This document shows, in pieces, positions 1 to 61,061 of a stretch of DNA of 64,000 bases. Within the stretch, counting starts at the first letter, position 1. Each line of letters begins with the position of its first letter. The notes under the pieces were generated by a model, which searched no databases, was not told the origin of the DNA, and worked only from the letters and a program-made list of their open reading frames with translations. The position numbers were made by a program, and so were the translations under genes. Source of the DNA: Escherichia phage FP43; the sequence record MN648445; one strand, written 5' to 3'.

Positions 1-267
1 GCTTTGCTTGATTCAGACGAAACACTTGAATATCCATGTACTGACTCAGTGACTTATTATATTCGTGATGGTAAGCTTTATACCCACTGCCATATGCGTT
101 CTCAGAACTGTGCTGTTGTTATGCAGTTGGATTTTTATCTCCAAGGAAAATTACTTCATTATATCGCTAACGAATGTGGTGTAGAAGTTGGTGATTATAC
201 TCATACCATGGTAAGTGCCCATGTGTTTGAACGTGATTTTGATTATGTTAAAGGATTCCTTGACTAA
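1..267 (+). CDS. 42: dCMP hydroxymethylase, C-terminal fragment (gene runs off the 5' edge of the window)
   Basis: Frame-1 ORF open from base 1; thymidylate-synthase-fold C-terminal motifs (CHMRSQN..., IANECG, SAHVF) paralogous to the td gene in this window; lies upstream of uvsX as in T4. Confidence 0.6.
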   Translation, partial: ALLDSDETLEYPCTDSVTYYIRDGKLYTHCHMRSQNCAVVMQLDFYLQGKLLHYIANECGVEVGDYTHTMVSAHVFERDFDYVKGFLD

Positions 268-1166
268 TGGCTATTTTCCGCGTACCAATCTTAAGTATGC
301 GGTCTTATGAAACTGGACAGTATGCTATCCTTAAGGATGGCAACTTCCAACTTCATTTGCACCGTGCTAATCCAGGTGATGTGATTACATATCCACGTAA
401 TGCATCTGATATTAAAGAATGTGAACGTCTTTTCCCGGAATTTAAGTTTGTTCCATTATGGTATAAAGATAACGCGTATAACACTCGTAAATATTTCTGG
501 TCTGAAAATGAATTTGTGGTTGATTCATTAATTGCTTATTATGATTGTGATTTTCTAATAACAGATATCACTGGATATGACGGCGCTTTTGATGTAGAAT
601 TCAATTTCAATATCACGGCAGACCCTAATAAACCACGTTTTTATATTGACGAATTCTTAAAAACCGATATGTTGTCAGTTAATCGTTCACTTCAAACTAC
701 TGTGTTGAATGAACGTCAAAAAGAAGTGCTGGTTAACGCCGGTGCAGATGTTAATAAGATTATCGTAACGCAGAAAGTTATACGTCCTTCCATCATGCAG
801 CGTCTTGTAGGTGATTTGGCTCCTATTCATCTAGATGGTATTTTTCATCCATTTCGAATTAGTGACCCATGTTATCGTTTTGAACAAGTGGTTGAATGTG
901 CAATTCAATTAGGACAACCGCTTTATATAACCGATCCAAATAATAGCTTTGACAGAAATAAGTATCCTGAAGAAGCGCTGATTCGAATTTTTAAACCAAC
1001 TAAAACTGAGTACTATCAAATTCTTAAAGGACGTCCGAAAATTCAATATTTCGAAAATCCTGAAGAAGTATTCCATCCAGGTCTTGGTGAGTTCATCTAC
1101 TTTAATGCTTTAATTTCTTCACCGTATAATATACCTAAATACGAAGATGTCGTAATCGAGGAATAA
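267..1166 (+). CDS. hypothetical protein at the beta-gt position; possible GT-B glycosyltransferase
   Basis: ATG overlaps upstream stop (TAATG); C-terminal stretch RFEQVVECAIQLGQPLYITD resembles the GT-B donor-binding E-x-x-x-E-x-A-x-x-x-G-x-P motif; no resemblance to T4 beta-gt that I can see. Confidence 0.45.
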   Translation: MAIFRVPILSMRSYETGQYAILKDGNFQLHLHRANPGDVITYPRNASDIKECERLFPEFKFVPLWYKDNAYNTRKYFWSENEFVVDSLIAYYDCDFLITDITGYDGAFDVEFNFNITADPNKPRFYIDEFLKTDMLSVNRSLQTTVLNERQKEVLVNAGADVNKIIVTQKVIRPSIMQRLVGDLAPIHLDGIFHPFRISDPCYRFEQVVECAIQLGQPLYITDPNNSFDRNKYPEEALIRIFKPTKTEYYQILKGRPKIQYFENPEEVFHPGLGEFIYFNALISSPYNIPKYEDVVIEE

Positions 1167-1167
1167 A

Positions 1168-1716
1168 ATGGCTAAAATTATTTTAGTAGACGGCCCGGAT
1201 AATGCCGGTAAAACAACTTTCATTAATGACATAATGGAAATTAGTGAAAGATATGTGAAGATTGATTTCCCTAAACGAACAGTTGATGGACGTTTCGATG
1301 TTAAGTCTCGAAATGAAGTTGGCTGTTTCGAAACGATGTTGAATTATTTAGACCCTACTAAGATTTATCTGTTAGACCGTGGATATATTAGTAACTGGGT
1401 TTATGGACGTATTCGACAAGATGCGGACTCGGTTCTTGACGTTTATGAACAGGACTATGTTCGTCTTTGCCAAAACCATGATGTGTTCACAATTATTTTA
1501 ACACGTAACGAAATGACTGAAAGTTTTGAAGACGACCTTATTACTTTGTCTTCATTCGGTTTTAATACAGTCATTTCACATTTTGAAGAGTTTGCAATTC
1601 ATAACAAAATCCAAACGTATCAATTACTTAATCATGATGGTGCTAACAAAGTTATAGGATTTAATGCAAGCGAACGTAATGGTTTGATTACAGAAATCAT
1701 CAAATGGGCTCGTTAA
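1168..1716 (+). CDS. P-loop nucleotide/nucleoside kinase-like protein (Tmk/dNK-like)
   Basis: Walker A GPDNAGKTT at residues 9-17; LLDRGYISNWVYG about 55 aa downstream resembles the DRY/S motif of thymidylate kinases. Confidence 0.55.
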   Translation: MAKIILVDGPDNAGKTTFINDIMEISERYVKIDFPKRTVDGRFDVKSRNEVGCFETMLNYLDPTKIYLLDRGYISNWVYGRIRQDADSVLDVYEQDYVRLCQNHDVFTIILTRNEMTESFEDDLITLSSFGFNTVISHFEEFAIHNKIQTYQLLNHDGANKVIGFNASERNGLITEIIKWAR

Positions 1717-21747: not shown

Positions 21748-22848
21748 ATGAAAGTTATGTTTATCCCATCTCGCGCAGTCCCATTTAACCCAGAACGTGT
21801 ACAAGGTGGTCTTGAAGCAGTACATTTAAATGTATTGAAATATCTTGTGTCCATCGGTGCTGATATTGATTATATCGGCTTTGATAATGACACGTTTGGT
21901 GACTGGAAGGTTAATCATCATCCTGTTGGTCATCTGACTAAATTCAGTCTAGGTATGAGTTATACTATGGCTCGTAAGATTGTTGAACTAGCCGGCATCC
22001 ATGAATACGATTTTGTTGTTACTATGGAACCGACCAAACTAACCGTTCAGGCAATTAAAGACGCAGGTCTCTCTAAAGTTCATAAGAATTTTATGGCAAC
22101 ACCATTTGAACCGGTATCTCGTGGCATTGTTCAAATTTGGGACCAGACTATTCAAATTCATAAGAACGGTGGTAAGAGTTATGCTCCTACTAAAGCCTTC
22201 CGTGAATTTGAACGCAAATATTGTTATATGACTTCAGGTCTGACTGACAAAATTGATTATGATTATTGGCGAGCAAATCCGTTGTTTGAAGCCGAAGATT
22301 ATCCGGTTATTTGTTTGAATGAGAAACCTGAAGTTCTTCCGGCGACTGATCTGATTATTAGTGCACAACGTTATGACACTAAAATGCGTCGTACTGATGT
22401 TGCTCTTGAAGCGATTAAAGCACTAGGCGAAAATGGTGCAGGATACTGTCCTAGTAAATGGGCACCACCAGCTAAATATCCTGTTATTATTGATGCTCCA
22501 CACAGTGAAATCATGGAACGTCTTAAAACAGCTAAAGCACTTATCAATACGTGTCCTGACACGGGTACGGTAGAGAATAGTTCTATTGAAGCCATCTCTA
22601 AAGGTGTCCCTGTGATTCAGTTAGTTTTTAAGGATTATCCGCACGCGACATTCGAATATGACCCAGATACTGTGCGTGTAGAAATTGATTCCTCTACTCC
22701 TAAGAAAGAAGTAGTTGCGCTTTACACAAAAGCTGTATTAGAATTCACTGACACATACGAAGCTCGAGTTAAACGTGCTGAAGCAGTATGGAAGAAGTAT
22801 AACCGAGATGCAGTTGTTGCGATGTGGGATAAAATCTTCACAGCGTAA
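21748..22848 (+). CDS. putative GT-B fold glycosyltransferase
   Basis: 366 aa; C-terminal TGTVENSSIEAISKGVPVIQ matches the GT-B donor-binding E-x7-E / EA-x-x-x-G-x-PVI motif; lies between 39 and rIIA, not at a T4 glucosyltransferase locus. Confidence 0.5.
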   Translation: MKVMFIPSRAVPFNPERVQGGLEAVHLNVLKYLVSIGADIDYIGFDNDTFGDWKVNHHPVGHLTKFSLGMSYTMARKIVELAGIHEYDFVVTMEPTKLTVQAIKDAGLSKVHKNFMATPFEPVSRGIVQIWDQTIQIHKNGGKSYAPTKAFREFERKYCYMTSGLTDKIDYDYWRANPLFEAEDYPVICLNEKPEVLPATDLIISAQRYDTKMRRTDVALEAIKALGENGAGYCPSKWAPPAKYPVIIDAPHSEIMERLKTAKALINTCPDTGTVENSSIEAISKGVPVIQLVFKDYPHATFEYDPDTVRVEIDSSTPKKEVVALYTKAVLEFTDTYEARVKRAEAVWKKYNRDAVVAMWDKIFTA

Positions 22849-57006: not shown

Positions 57007-58092
<1,086 letters not shown>

Positions 58093-58093
<1 letters not shown>

Positions 58094-58832: not shown

Positions 58833-59069
58833 ATGCTAAGTGAAAACCCAATTACAGTACACGAATTTCAGATTAAAGTAAAAGAATTTGCTCAAGCACT
58901 CATCAATAAAGTGTCTGAACGTTTCCAAGATGCAACATTACGAGTTATTCAAGAATCTCCACGTTCTTTTCTCATAATCGTTAATCCTAAAGATGGTGAC
59001 CAAATTACTAATCTTAAATTAGGCAGTGATGGTCTTGTTGAAGCAACTCGAGTATATGGAACACTATAA
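58833..59069 (+). CDS. hypothetical protein
   Basis: 78-aa ORF. Confidence 0.5.
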   Translation: MLSENPITVHEFQIKVKEFAQALINKVSERFQDATLRVIQESPRSFLIIVNPKDGDQITNLKLGSDGLVEATRVYGTL

Positions 59070-59189
59070 TGAGAGCTATCTCATTACTATCGAGAATGGT
59101 CATAAATCTGAGCACTACCAACTTAGCCTATCTAATCCGGTTAAAGGTATTGTTGAATCAGAATCTGTTTATATCTCCTAAGGATTGTT

Positions 59190-60182
59190 ATGTTACCTGT
59201 CATCAGAAAACTTATTTCTCCAAAAGAACTGGCTGAGATTATTCCTTTGTCGGAAGCTTACGCATCACAAGTGGCTTCTCATCGCGAACAAGTTAATTCG
59301 ATTATGAACGGTGAAGACCCACGCAAACTTATTGTTGTAGGTCCTTGTTCAATTCATGACCCTATTGCTGCTGTTGAATACGGCAAACGTCTGGCTGAAC
59401 TTCAAACTCGTCTTCCTAATGTTCTGTTAGTGATGCGCGTTTATTTTGAAAAGCCTCGAACTACCGTAGGTTGGAAAGGTCTTGTAAATGATCCATATCT
59501 TGACGGAAGTTTTGATATGAACCACGGTCTTATAGTTGCACGAACATTGTGTCGTAAACTTCTACGTATGGGACTTCCATTAGCAACTGAAGTATTAGAC
59601 CCATTCACGATTAAGTATCTTTCTGGTATTTTCTCATGGGTTGCTATTGGCGCCCGTACGACTGAAAGTCAGACACATCGTGAAATTGCTTCGGGTCTAC
59701 CGATGTGCGTAGGCTTCAAGAACGCAACCAATGGTTCTATTAAAGTAGCTACAGACGCGATGTATAGTGCCGCCTGGCCTCATCGGTATATGGGTATGGA
59801 CGTCGATGGTACTGTAGGCATTGTTGAAGCTGAAGGTAATCAGAATACGCATATCGTATTGCGTGGCGGGACCAACGGCCCGAACTATCATTCTTCTGAT
59901 ATTCAAGAAGCTTCTAACAAAGCAAGGGCAGTAGGTCTGAATCATTATGTAATGGTTGACTGTAGCCATGCAAACGCTGATGGGCATTATAGCAATCAAA
60001 TTGGTATTGGTAAAAATTTAGCAGCTAATGATTTGGTCAAAGGAATTATGATAGAATCATTCCTACATGAAGGAAATCAAAAAATTTCCGATAATATGTC
60101 CTATGGCGTTTCCGTTACCGATGCGTGCATCAGTTGGGAACAAACTAAAGAGCTGTTAACTTATATTAATAAGGTTCAATAA
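59190..60182 (+). CDS. 3-deoxy-D-arabino-heptulosonate 7-phosphate (DAHP) synthase, AroG-type
   Basis: 330 aa; GPCSIHD, VMRVYFEKPRTTVGWKGL, IGARTTESQTHRE, GFKNATNGSIKVA, VLRGG and the C-terminal HEGNQ/ACISWE region align block-by-block with E. coli AroG as I recall it. Confidence 0.85.
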   Translation: MLPVIRKLISPKELAEIIPLSEAYASQVASHREQVNSIMNGEDPRKLIVVGPCSIHDPIAAVEYGKRLAELQTRLPNVLLVMRVYFEKPRTTVGWKGLVNDPYLDGSFDMNHGLIVARTLCRKLLRMGLPLATEVLDPFTIKYLSGIFSWVAIGARTTESQTHREIASGLPMCVGFKNATNGSIKVATDAMYSAAWPHRYMGMDVDGTVGIVEAEGNQNTHIVLRGGTNGPNYHSSDIQEASNKARAVGLNHYVMVDCSHANADGHYSNQIGIGKNLAANDLVKGIMIESFLHEGNQKISDNMSYGVSVTDACISWEQTKELLTYINKVQ

Positions 60183-60763
60183 TGAAAGCTAGCACATACC
60201 TTCAGATTGCATATCTGATTTCTCAAGAATCAAAATGTTGTTCATGGAAAGTTGGCGCAGTCATTGAAAAAGATGGGCGCATTATTTCTACTGGGTATAA
60301 CGGTTCACCTGCAGGTGGCGTTAACTGTTGCGAACATGCATCTGAAAATGGTTGGTTGAAGAATAAACCAATCCCAGTCATCGTTGCTGGGCATAAAGAA
60401 GGCACTACAGCATTTGGACGGGCCGATAATTTTGTTTTGGCTAAAGAACATCGGGCTGCTCATAGTGCATGGTCTGCCAATAACGAAATCCATGCGGAAC
60501 TGAATGCAATTTTGTTTGCAGCTCGTAAAGGTAATTCTATTGAAGGTGCTACGTTGTATACGACACTTTCTCCATGTCCTGATTGCACTAAAGCTATTAC
60601 ACAGTCAGGTATTAAAAAGGTTGTATATGCAGAATTATATGACCGATCTCCTGAAAATTGGGCAGACATTCTTAAACAAGCTGGTATTGAAGTAATTCAG
60701 TACTCTCGTAATAATCTTCGTTCTCTGAATTGGGAACAAATCCGAAACTTTTGTGGTGAATAA
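60182..60763 (+). CDS. cd: dCMP deaminase
   Basis: 193 aa; zinc-binding HAELNA ... SPCPDC motifs. Confidence 0.9.
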   Translation: MKASTYLQIAYLISQESKCCSWKVGAVIEKDGRIISTGYNGSPAGGVNCCEHASENGWLKNKPIPVIVAGHKEGTTAFGRADNFVLAKEHRAAHSAWSANNEIHAELNAILFAARKGNSIEGATLYTTLSPCPDCTKAITQSGIKKVVYAELYDRSPENWADILKQAGIEVIQYSRNNLRSLNWEQIRNFCGE

Positions 60764-60764
60764 T

Positions 60765-61061
60765 ATGATTTTAACTGAACAAGAAACTATGGTTCTTCGT
60801 GAACGTATTAAAACTATTCTGTCTGTAGGCGTTCATTGTGTTGTATTTGAAAAGGCTAACGGTGATGTTCGTACGATGTTTGCCTCCCGTGATGAACTTG
60901 AAGTCAAATACGAAAATAACAATCCGGCAACAGAAGTTCGTTATGAACCTCGTGAATCAGTTCGAGCATTCGATACCAAGTTAGGCCAGTGGCGTTCTTT
61001 CCGCCTTGATAAAGTAATTTCGGTTGATGGTACTCCGGTAGAACGTTTGCTTCTTATGTAA
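60765..61061 (+). CDS. hypothetical protein (31.x position)
   Basis: 98 aa from ATG 60765. Confidence 0.5.
   Translation: MILTEQETMVLRERIKTILSVGVHCVVFEKANGDVRTMFASRDELEVKYENNNPATEVRYEPRESVRAFDTKLGQWRSFRLDKVISVDGTPVERLLLM

Follow-up and report, generated by a model that had tools for sequence, protein, structure and literature searches.

Between pseT and cd, Escherichia phage FP43 carries a gene whose product is, by sequence, a DAHP synthase of type I-alpha. The protein is full-length, is most similar to E. coli AroF and has a rebuilt inhibitor pocket. We propose, with a probability of about one half, that this enzyme keeps up the prephenate with which every cytosine of the phage DNA would be hydroxylated in the absence of oxygen, and we infer that supplying prephenate is the function for which it was selected. 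The gene is already annotated as a DAHP synthase in 139 near-identical Mosigvirus records, and such genes are annotated in about 200 T4-like phage genomes; literature searches on phage DAHP synthase returned nothing relevant and no described role. The features of the locus, within the window (the whole 64,000-nucleotide stretch of sequence record MN648445 that was analysed), are as follows.

57194..58093, + strand: pseT, polynucleotide kinase/phosphatase (Pfam HAD_PNKP and AAA_33), the upstream landmark of the conserved slot
59056..59181, + strand: small open reading frame of 41 aa, the equivalent of JS09_0231, present or absent jointly with the DAHP synthase gene
59066..59084, + strand: left copy of an imperfect 19-nt direct repeat (ATAATGAGAGCTATCTCAT), at the cd.2 stop codon
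59180..59184, + strand: Shine-Dalgarno sequence AAGGA, 5 nt upstream of the DAHP synthase ATG
59190..60182, + strand: DAHP synthase gene, 330 aa, type I-alpha, AroF-like, ATG start, with remodelled inhibitor pocket and without N-terminal arm
60179..60197, + strand: right copy of the direct repeat (ATAATGAAAGCTAGCACAT), 16/19 identical, at the DAHP synthase stop and cd start
60182..60763, + strand: cd, dCMP deaminase (dCMP_cyt_deam_1), whose ATG overlaps the DAHP synthase stop codon (TAATG)

The original prediction, made from the letters of the DNA, described a 330-aa open reading frame with five conserved blocks (GPCSIHD, VMRVYFEKPRTTVGWKGL, IGARTTESQTHRE, GFKNATNGSIKVA and VLRGG) and called it an AroG-type DAHP synthase. 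The open reading frame list and the translation of 59190..60182 bear out the frame and all five blocks, far beyond what chance would give. A profile search matches the window protein to Pfam DAHP_synth_1 (E=5e-75), and it scores 252 bits against PF00793 (cutoff 25.5), 428.5 bits against NCBIfam TIGR00034 aroFGH (cutoff 173.2) and 455.9 bits against PRK12755 (cutoff 343). Residues 8-327 match E. coli AroF (PDB 6agm) with E=4e-105. The scores against the AroG model NF006723 (364.5) and the AroH model NF009396 (386.7) are below the isozyme cutoffs of 568 and 463. Assignment as a DAHP synthase therefore stands, and the AroG label is slightly off, since AroF is nearest by both identity (51%, versus 48% for AroG and 44% for AroH of E. 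coli) and tree. Alignment to the three isozymes, one of the checks that had been suggested, showed the catalytic residues kept and inhibitor-site columns changed; the suggested search for a donor lineage gave a neighbour-joining tree in which the phage clade adjoins the enterobacterial AroF group. Within the model proposed above, and sharing its overall odds, the gene would be an old capture of an AroF-like enterobacterial gene.

The same model, at the same odds, has a catalytically competent enzyme, predicted from its residues to convert PEP and erythrose-4-phosphate (E4P) to DAHP. The metal ligands of DAHP synthase, which we take to be Cys61, His268, Glu302 and Asp326 in AroG numbering (PMC9529685), are C53, H260, E289 and D311 in the window protein and are kept in 25/25 phage-clade sequences. 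All 25 also keep the PEP-binding residues Arg92, Lys97, Gly163, Ala164, Arg165, Lys186 and Arg234 (AroG numbering) and the E4P-type KPRT motif, K88-P89-R90-T91 in the window protein. With metal, PEP and E4P residues all conserved, the pseudo-enzyme that the original prediction had allowed for finds no footing.

That prediction had also offered an enzyme recruited for an unusual DNA sugar, which would join PEP to arabinose-5-phosphate or another sugar phosphate in the manner of KDO8P synthase. DAHP synthase and KDO8P synthase do have a common fold, which makes such a shift of specificity conceivable. The corresponding motif of KDO8P synthases differs from Lys-Pro-Arg-Thr, however, whereas KPRT and the E4P and PEP contacts are invariant in the 25 phage sequences. 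The family and PDB matches listed for the window protein are all DAHP synthases, none KdsA, the best being genuine DAHP synthases (E values as low as 1e-105), and the six changes specific to the clade, described below, fall at the regulatory site and not the active site. The phage makes arabinose-5-phosphate (PMC13326640), yet RB69 arabinosylates its DNA (PMC6024577, PMC13326640) without having the gene, and the gene does not match the distribution of the arabinose-5-phosphate isomerase. The sugar option is thus unsupported, and we regard a changed specificity as extremely improbable.

Bacterial sequences give 122 columns with conservation of 90% or more. The phage clade departs from them at just six (P150I, Q151K, D155G, S180P, F209Y and T223A in AroG numbering), and these replacements are fixed across it. 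A published list of inhibitor-site residues covers four of the six positions (hypergeometric P=5.7e-5), and five of the six are covered by either that list or feedback-resistance mutations (P=3.5e-6) (PMC9529685). The N-terminal arm that closes the inhibitor pocket is also affected, about nine residues being absent in 25/25 phage-clade sequences; this short N-terminus is real, because the window sequence has no in-frame start upstream of the ATG. In AroF, deletion of Ile11 by itself confers feedback resistance (PMC10729320). Because pocket positions are replaced and the arm is missing, the phage enzyme is predicted to be insensitive to feedback by Tyr, Phe and Trp. The combination of remodelled pocket and missing arm appears to be a new observation. 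Within the phage clade, 56% of pocket columns are invariant versus 35% for the whole protein. Such strong conservation could reflect a retained or new ligand instead of lost regulation, and the rebuilt allosteric pocket may have come to sense a metabolite specific to the phage.

The placement between pseT and cd given in the original prediction is confirmed by Pfam matches to both neighbours. In the window sequence, the two 19-nt repeat copies bound the DAHP synthase cassette; Mosigviruses that are minus the DAHP synthase have one repeat copy, with cd.2 joined directly to cd. A promoter and terminator scan found no + strand terminator between pseT and cd. Given this and the TAATG overlap, the genes from pseT to cd are probably co-transcribed, and the DAHP synthase is probably translationally coupled with cd. 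The 13 promoter-like sites in the scan, versus 16.2 expected by chance, are uninformative on timing. The pseT–cd position of phage DAHP synthase is conserved in at least five T4-like genera, and the gene is about 100 kb from the 5-hydroxycytosine cluster discussed below.

A clean, cassette-like indel at a 19-nt repeat, missing from some close relatives, is what a neutral passenger might leave, and replaced pocket residues more conserved than the protein average would suit an enzyme re-regulated by some other effector. We think it quite unlikely that either accounts for the gene. The phage DAHP synthases at pseT–cd form a monophyletic clade with 53-99% pairwise identity, and the retention of catalytic residues, position and this level of identity across at least five genera argues against a passenger; for re-regulation, no candidate effector is known.

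The prephenate model needs a consumer, and the original prediction had linked the gene to DNA modification and to positions 1-1716. That link is supported in another form: this end of the window is the end of the 5-hydroxycytosine cluster, and the connection would run through prephenate and a U32-family protein instead of a sugar. The cluster genes in the window are as follows.

1..264, + strand: 3' end of the RB69 gp48 homolog (thymidylate-synthase-like 5-hydroxy-dCMP synthase), 100% identity to gp48 residues 151-238
267..1166, + strand: RB69 gp46:47 homolog, a single 299-aa open reading frame, part of the 5-hydroxycytosine/arabinosylation cluster
1168..1716, + strand: RB69 gp45 homolog, annotated thymidylate kinase (dNMP kinase-like)

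The gp46/gp47 split in RB69 is a sequencing error (PMC13326640). Comparison with JS09 and Mizar places the U32 gene, the gp50 homolog, just upstream of the window start. gp50 scores 42.2 bits against Pfam Peptidase_U32 (cutoff 22.4), with very weak pairwise similarity to E. coli U32 proteins. Bacterial U32 enzymes are prephenate-dependent, O2-independent hydroxylases. A PDB sequence search with gp50 gave no match. In alignments, its C195 and C212 fall on Fe-S ligands of RlhA and UbiU. A CX4CX3CX2C motif lies at its C-terminus. RlhA makes 5-hydroxycytidine in rRNA and needs the aro pathway (PMC5727448), and the oxygen donor of UbiU/V is prephenate (PMC10990095). We infer that gp50 would use prephenate as well. 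Because gp48 and a dNMP kinase suffice for 5-hydroxy-dC in E. coli, with oxygen from O2 (PMC13326640), any part played there by gp50 is hypothetical. The U32 gene occurs exclusively in phages whose hosts are facultative anaerobes, and we tentatively suggest, at somewhat less than even odds, that T4-like phages of such hosts have a second, O2-independent route to 5-hydroxycytosine in which the U32 protein takes the hydroxyl from prephenate.

The presence or absence of the DAHP synthase across related phages, also among the suggested checks, proved patchy among T4-like phages: the gene is absent from RB69, mar007P3 and Yersinia phiR1-RT and is not, as the original prediction had allowed, ubiquitous in the group. 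By organism tallies, only U32-positive T4-like phages have it, and the others among 818 matched T4-like records do not; this restriction is drawn from tallies and samples, and shared ancestry confounds it. In the sampled non-Mosigvirus phages with a DAHP synthase, a U32 gene or a chorismate mutase at the U32 locus was confirmed in 13/16, and none was found without. Record counts by host name run closely together for DAHP synthase and gp50 (Klebsiella 25/26, Proteus 7/7, Serratia 6/7, Enterobacter 4/4, Edwardsiella 3/3 and Escherichia 124/136). The co-occurrence in T4-like phages could nonetheless be a single ancestral event and not many independent observations. A U32 gene unaccompanied by the DAHP synthase occurs in RB69, mar007P3 and the Yersinia Tegunaviruses, so the synthase is dispensable at least in some conditions. 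The cluster of Acinetobacter phages is collinear with that of RB69 except that the U32 gene and its small neighbour, and nothing else, are missing; in these phages the DAHP synthase is absent as well.

The arabinose genes are distributed differently. The arabinose-5-phosphate isomerase (RB69 gp55) is encoded by 57 Acinetobacter phages, all without a T4-type DAHP synthase; among Klebsiella phages no more than two encode it, versus 25 with the DAHP synthase. An arabinose link by co-occurrence with gp55 was rejected because the two profiles differ; the isomerase is also a poor marker, since Marfa has the rest of the cluster without it. That the DAHP synthase follows the U32 gene and not the arabinose genes appears to be new. 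These distributions bear on a further explanation, in which the enzyme is a carbon-flux valve: by using E4P and PEP it would pull the non-oxidative pentose phosphate pathway towards Ru5P, and hence arabinose-5-phosphate and ribose-5-phosphate, with DAHP as waste. Many phages with DAHP synthase do have sugar-activation genes, and the arabinose donor has been proposed to derive from pentose phosphate Ru5P (PMC13326640). We hold such a valve to be very improbable, as Acinetobacter phages run a full arabinose pathway without the DAHP synthase, the gene tracks U32 and not the isomerase, and a valve gives no reason for an adjacent chorismate mutase or an association with CmoA. A distant DAHP synthase is also encoded on gut contigs labelled 'Bacteriophage sp.', which were set aside as short, unannotated and of doubtful viral nature; they had no homologs of CmoA, U32 or chorismate mutase.

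An AroQ-type chorismate mutase is encoded at the locus of the U32 and thymidylate-synthase-like synthase genes in 51 phage records from about 12 host genera (Pfam CM_2, 40.9 bits versus a cutoff of 27; PDB 1ybz, E=3.5e-8). This phage enzyme is unregulated and is present in most of the genera other than Mosigvirus, where none is detectable; Marfa is also without one. Mosigvirus gp49, which matches the Entb_45 enzyme in length and in slot, was considered as a chorismate mutase and rejected on sequence searches: it has no Pfam or NCBIfam match, BLASTP gives E=6.9, hhalign gives a probability of 0.07, and its homologs are confined to Mosigvirus.

In the prephenate model, the DAHP synthase would be expressed with the early nucleotide-metabolism genes from pseT to cd and would force carbon into the host's repressed, feedback-inhibited shikimate pathway, the host supplying six further steps, so that chorismate and prephenate would rise. 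Prephenate would be the organic oxygen donor, one molecule per cytosine, for making 5-hydroxycytosine without O2. The gp50 homolog, a putative U32-family Fe-S protein of the phage, would catalyse this hydroxylation and back up the flavin/O2-dependent 5-hydroxy-dCMP synthase gp48 in an anoxic enteric host. A genome has about 63,600 cytosines, and the demand of millions of prephenate molecules per burst would be met by the feedback-blind DAHP synthase, together with the chorismate mutase in most genera. The by-product would be phenylpyruvate, the precursor of Phe; since Phe would switch off AroG and PheA of the host, the phage would depend on a DAHP synthase blind to feedback. The first option of the original prediction, a boosted supply of aromatic precursors, survives here as the biochemical effect, with prephenate for DNA modification and not amino acids as the likely beneficiary.

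A deregulated DAHP synthase might instead be a generic auxiliary gene that sustains aromatic amino acids, or folate, quinones and enterobactin, after host shut-off. An intact enzyme predicted to be feedback-insensitive would increase the flow into all branches of the pathway, the gene sits among early nucleotide-metabolism genes, and it is not needed for DNA modification in RB69 and the Tegunaviruses. This explanation is possible and, in our view, unlikely, since it does not account for the confinement of the gene to U32-positive T4-like phages, or for the chorismate mutase beside U32 in 51 phages, an enzyme that channels carbon to prephenate at the expense of Trp, folate and quinones. Nor does it account for an unrelated phage having its DAHP synthase next to CmoA.

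That phage is Aeromonas phage HJ05, whose DAHP synthase belongs to a separate clade and is encoded within a cluster of CmoA type, with ParBc, CmoA and an Asn-synthetase-like gene. Positions 150, 151, 180 and 209 of its pocket, plus 155, are changed again, S180P identically. CmoA is a consumer of prephenate. The HJ05 enzyme suggests that the same strategy of prephenate supply arose independently for 5-carboxymethylcytosine.

If the prephenate model is true, a gene annotated in about 200 T4-like phage genomes, among which are many candidates for therapy, acquires a function, as does the conserved, unmentioned U32 "peptidase" gene of the newly described 5-hydroxycytosine cluster. The model would also address the source of prephenate for genome-wide modification, a question raised for another phage system (PMC12783734). 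DNA modification, and hence resistance to restriction and CRISPR, would depend on oxygen and the host aro pathway, a point of relevance to phage therapy in an anoxic gut. The phage would also be the first known case of a virus redirecting aromatic biosynthesis to obtain an organic oxygen donor for DNA hypermodification.

The phage enzyme resembles E. coli AroF (PDB 6AGM), AroG and AroH in its full-length homology, its metal, PEP and E4P residues and its KPRT motif, and differs in the roughly nine missing N-terminal residues, the six substituted pocket positions and scores below the isozyme cutoffs. Laboratory feedback-resistant DAHP synthases (AroG P150L, S180F, F209A/S and Gln151 variants; AroF lacking Ile11) are altered at the same positions and in the same arm. 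The phage residues I, K, G, P, Y and A are other substitutions, however, and unlike the laboratory changes they form a fixed set of six, conserved across genera and predicted to confer resistance. The clade therefore offers natural, evolution-tested candidate feedback-resistance substitutions for a standard target enzyme of metabolic engineering.

T4-like cyanophages carry classical auxiliary metabolic genes, such as talC and psbA. Like the DAHP synthase, these are host-derived genes of central metabolism in lytic T4-like phages that remove a bottleneck of infection; here the pathway is the shikimate pathway, the allosteric site is altered, and the proposed benefit is co-substrate supply to DNA hypermodification instead of energy or nucleotides. 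Another parallel is the phage CmoA/CmoX/CmoY 5-carboxymethylcytosine system of Synechococcus phage S-B43, a genome-wide cytosine modification that consumes prephenate and whose authors raise prephenate availability as a question (PMC12783734). Unlike such systems, the window phage has no CmoA, and its proposed consumer is the U32 hydroxylase. E. coli itself has dual hydroxylation systems, one arm O2-dependent and the other dependent on prephenate and U32 proteins: TrhO/TrhP for ho5U in tRNA, UbiIHF/UbiUV for ubiquinone and RlhA for ho5C2501 in 23S rRNA, the last with the same base chemistry as phage 5-hydroxycytosine, and the phage likewise pairs an O2/flavin enzyme, gp48, with a putative U32 Fe-S protein, gp50. 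Unlike in E. coli, the phage substrate would be a deoxynucleotide or DNA, modified genome-wide with a stoichiometric and very large demand for prephenate, and the phage adds the enzyme of pathway entry and, in most genera, a chorismate mutase of its own.

The 330-aa ORF between pseT and cd encodes, to judge by its sequence, a DAHP synthase whose active site is intact, and we infer that its selected function is probably the supply of prephenate. The reading frame is exactly where it was originally predicted, and every sequence block quoted from it is found in the translation.

Features of the pseT–cd region
upstream of the DAHP synthase gene: pseT
59066-59084 and 60179-60197: 19-nt imperfect direct repeat, 16/19 identical, copies of the cd.2-stop/cd-start junction
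5 nt before the DAHP synthase ATG, plus strand: Shine-Dalgarno sequence AAGGA
59190..60182, plus strand: DAHP synthase gene, 330 aa, ATG start, from the ORF listing
60182-60763: cd (dCMP deaminase), its start overlapping the DAHP synthase stop (TAATG)

No further in-frame start was found upstream of this ATG. A pattern scan from pseT to cd found no plus-strand terminator, and its promoter-like matches were no more frequent than expected by chance. The gp31.1 homolog at 60753-61061 fits Pfam WYL_2 (Sm-like SH3 barrel, E=3.7e-9). The cd product is 193 aa in the window and in the related phages JS09 and mar007P3 versus 169 aa as annotated in RB69 (segment L006, 7743-8252), where a 3' truncation, frameshift or sequencing error in the record may account for the short form.

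The window protein matches Pfam DAHP_synth_1 (E=5e-75) and scores above the curated thresholds for NCBIfam TIGR00034 (aroFGH) and PRK12755; among solved structures, its best match is E. coli AroF (6agm, E=4e-105, residues 8-327). The predicted AroG type holds at the level of the aroFGH family but no further: the AroG- and AroH-specific NCBIfam cutoffs are not reached, and in alignment with the E. coli K-12 isozymes (NC_000913.3) identity to AroF (51%) exceeds that to AroG (48%) and AroH (44%). Residues were compared in an alignment of the window protein, 24 phage-type homologs, 95 bacterial homologs and E. coli AroG, AroF and AroH. All four metal ligands, C61, H268, E302 and D326 (AroG numbering), the PEP residues R92, K97, G163, A164, R165, K186 and R234, and the E4P-type KPRT motif are kept in 25/25 phage sequences, and the idea that this might be a pseudo-enzyme therefore fails. 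The roles of these positions follow the AroG structures and a published list of catalytic-site residues (PMC9529685).

The inhibitor site is a different matter. Among 122 columns conserved in at least 90% of the bacterial sequences, only six have a fixed different residue in the phage clade (P150I, Q151K, D155G, S180P, F209Y and T223A), and the first 8-10 residues are missing from all 25 phage proteins. The inhibitor-site residues listed for the C. glutamicum enzyme (PMC9529685), which we mapped to AroG 147, 151, 155, 179, 180, 209, 211, 212 and 214, include four of the six (hypergeometric P=5.7e-5). The same paper describes D155 as anchoring the site through a salt bridge, and recalls feedback resistance from AroG P150L, S180F, F209A/S and Gln151 changes; five of the six columns are on the binding-site or resistance-mutation list (P=3.5e-6). 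In AroF, deletion of Ile11 in the N-terminal arm alone suffices for resistance (PMC10729320). We predict that the phage enzyme would be insensitive to Tyr, Phe and Trp. Across 18 phage-clade representatives, 56% of pocket columns are invariant versus a protein average of 35%. The pocket was remodelled and afterwards kept constant, not left to decay, so it may bind a new ligand. We consider it unlikely that the gene is a neutral passenger, or that the enzyme has been re-regulated by a new effector.

That the gene encodes a DAHP synthase is already in the databases: at least 95% identical copies occur in 139 phage records, most so annotated, and tblastn finds the enzyme in 212 records. The two records taken in full, those of JS09 and of mar007P3, a relative of RB69, are classified as Mosigvirus; T4-like phages of Klebsiella, Serratia, Erwinia, Edwardsiella, Enterobacter, Proteus and Providencia have it at 57-77% identity, and it also fills the pseT–cd slot in Winklervirus, Marfavirus, Bragavirus and Kanagawavirus. 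Neighbour-joining recovers the phage sequences as a monophyletic clade (100/100 bootstraps; 97/100 without pocket and N-terminal columns), and the search for a donor lineage leads to enterobacterial AroF as the nearest group. Monophyly, a highest bacterial identity of ~55% and a third-position GC equal to that of neighbouring genes together point to a single old capture. The gene is not ubiquitous in T4-like phages: cd.2 is joined straight to cd in RB69 and mar007P3, and Yersinia phage phiR1-RT has no DAHP synthase gene from pseT to cd. The 19-nt repeats bound a segment of 1,113 bp that comprises the DAHP synthase gene and a small ORF, and the repeat is single-copy in RB69 and mar007P3. The segment is a clean, cassette-like indel, and the repeats suggest gain or loss through recombination between them; RB69 shows that the enzyme is dispensable in the laboratory.

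RB69 DNA carries arabinose (Thomas et al., PMC6024577). The modified base was identified in 2026 as 5-hydroxycytosine, made by gp48, a thymidylate-synthase (TS)-like flavoenzyme using O2, and the arabinose is proposed to come from Ru5P via gp55 (A5P isomerase), gp52:53 and gp51 (PMC13326640). The window opens inside the corresponding cluster, and the cluster's U32 gene (gp50 in RB69) must be located just ahead of the window start.

Cluster genes at the start of the window
1-264: gp48 homolog, C-terminal end
267-1166: gp46:47 homolog, a single ORF of 299 aa that the RB69 record splits
1168-1716: gp45 homolog, kinase-like

The predicted link between the DAHP synthase and 1-1716 survives in that this is the 5-hydroxycytosine cluster, but not in its sugar branch. 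An enzyme supplying an unusual sugar would be expected to track the A5P isomerase, which is found in 57 Acinetobacter phages, none of which has a DAHP synthase of the T4 type; among Klebsiella phages at most two have the isomerase, versus 25 with DAHP synthase; RB69, moreover, arabinosylates its DNA although it lacks the enzyme. We therefore reject sugar supply. The Acinetobacter phages and the invariant KPRT motif also contradict two further readings: that the enzyme reshapes the pentose phosphate pathway by draining E4P and PEP, which is very unlikely, and that its substrate has changed to A5P, which is scarcely credible. Klebsiella phage Marfa (L012, 2170-8294) has gp45-gp53 homologs, with U32 at 89% identity; the region has no arabinose-5-P isomerase, and nothing separates its U32 gene from the TS-like one. 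Marfa may instead use host KdsD/GutQ and PheA/TyrA. The 366-aa ORF at window 21748-22848 has no Pfam match and, compared by length alone, is like RB69 ORF003c (366 aa). The latter is a proposed arabinosyltransferase (PMC6024577).

RB69 gp50, a Pfam Peptidase_U32 protein encoded mid-cluster, is found by tblastn in 221 records, with a host profile nearly equal to that of the DAHP synthase.

Records with gp50 and with DAHP synthase, by host
Escherichia: gp50 136, DAHP synthase 124
Klebsiella: gp50 26, DAHP synthase 25
Shigella: gp50 14, DAHP synthase 12
Proteus: gp50 7, DAHP synthase 7
Serratia: gp50 7, DAHP synthase 6
Enterobacter: gp50 4, DAHP synthase 4
Edwardsiella: gp50 3, DAHP synthase 3

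This co-occurrence is drawn from host tallies and sampled rows, and within T4-like phages it may stem from one ancestral event. Mizar and JS09, the closest relatives of the window phage, carry gp50. U32 occurs without DAHP synthase in RB69, the mar005P1 group and Yersinia phages, so the DAHP synthase is nested within the U32-positive set.

In practice, the U32 proteins of bacteria are not peptidases. RlhA is needed for 5-hydroxycytidine at C2501 of 23S rRNA, as are Fe-S cluster biogenesis and the entire aro pathway to prephenate (PMC5727448). TrhP is the prephenate-dependent counterpart of the O2-dependent TrhO for ho5U in tRNA (PMC6599085, PMC12783734), and in anaerobic ubiquinone synthesis by UbiU/V the oxygen donor is prephenate, with phenylpyruvate the proposed by-product (PMC10990095). 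RB69 gp50 retains cysteines at positions matching Fe-S ligands in RlhA and UbiU and has a C-terminal CX4CX3CX2C motif, and we infer that it uses prephenate too. In Enterobacter phage Entb_45, the U32 gene is followed by a 79-aa chorismate mutase (Pfam CM_2, 40.9 bits versus a cutoff of 27; PDB 1ybz, E=3.5e-8) and the TS-like synthase, with overlapping stops and starts. By tblastn this mutase is in 51 phage records, adjoining the TS-like synthase gene where annotation is informative, from phages of Klebsiella, Serratia, Yersinia, Enterobacter, Edwardsiella, Erwinia, Pectobacterium, Providencia, Morganella, Kosakonia, E. coli (EcS1) and Shewanella (Thanatos). No recognisable chorismate mutase was found in Mosigvirus, the window phage's own genus. 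RB69 gp49 (segment L011, 5257-5496, minus strand; 79 aa), exclusive to Mosigvirus, sits in the slot of the mutase of other genera and has no detectable similarity to it.

In the proposed model the DAHP synthase, probably expressed along with early nucleotide-metabolism genes and predicted to be blind to aromatic amino acids, would drive carbon to chorismate through the host AroB-to-AroC enzymes; a phage or host chorismate mutase would yield prephenate, with which the U32 protein would hydroxylate cytosine C5 without O2. The by-product phenylpyruvate would be turned into Phe, an amino acid that would otherwise shut off AroG and PheA of the host. The window's G+C of 37.65% gives ~63,600 cytosines per 169-kb genome, and an assumed burst of 100-200, typical of T4-like phages, would then take a computed 6e6 to 1.3e7 prephenate molecules at one per cytosine, which on a rough estimate is of the order of the cell's whole aromatic output per generation.

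A second setting is offered by Aeromonas phage HJ05 (79 kb, not T4-like), whose DAHP synthase is 38% identical to the window's and has three close relatives on phage-sized contigs, the next matches being cellular and at most 46% identical. A CmoA homolog lies ~3 kb away (TIGR00740, E=7e-35, full-length, short of the equivalog cutoff; CmoA structures in PDB, E~1e-23). In the cluster (L018, 91-12641), annotated as hypothetical throughout, the CmoA homolog and the DAHP synthase are accompanied by two ParB_N/ParBc proteins and one that is Asn-synthetase-like; no transferase of the CmoX type was identified. The cluster is probably a DNA modification module of the 5-carboxymethylcytosine type, the published signature of that phage system being the same ParBc, CmoA and asparagine-synthetase-like genes. 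CmoA there uses up prephenate, the availability of which the authors call an open question (PMC12783734). The HJ05 clade keeps all catalytic residues and is altered at 150, 151, 180, 209 and 155, with S180P identical to that of the T4-like clade (P=0.011 for at least four of five testable T4-clade positions being among its changed columns by chance); one member has a short N-terminal start. HJ05 would be an independent case of a DAHP synthase with a prephenate consumer. Two gut 'Bacteriophage sp.' contigs (5-7 kb, marked unverified, of doubtful viral origin) encode DAHP synthases of ~35% identity (L019, 4767-5798; L020, 3635-4684) with catalytic residues intact and positions 150, 151 and 180 altered.

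That the enzyme generally raises the supply of aromatic amino acids or cofactors, akin to the boosted aromatic precursor supply of the original prediction, is possible though less likely: this reading leaves unexplained why the DAHP synthase is limited to U32-positive phages, why chorismate mutase adjoins U32, and the association with CmoA. In the literature covered, the 5-hydroxycytosine phage papers nowhere name U32, peptidase, prephenate, chorismate, shikimate or DAHP, and nothing was found linking these phages with U32, prephenate, shikimate or DAHP; earlier publication is possible.

The cluster of Acinetobacter phage Kimel is collinear with that of RB69, minus exactly U32 and the adjoining small gene, and the gp50 tblastn returned no Acinetobacter or Stenotrophomonas record. 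These hosts are strict aerobes, in contrast to the facultative anaerobes that U32-positive phages infect. Arabinosyl-5-hydroxycytosine is also present in Acinetobacter phage Maestro and Stenotrophomonas phage DLP3 (PMC13326640). The pattern of phage genes, with U32 accompanying facultatively anaerobic hosts, parallels the way E. coli pairs O2-dependent with prephenate-dependent routes.
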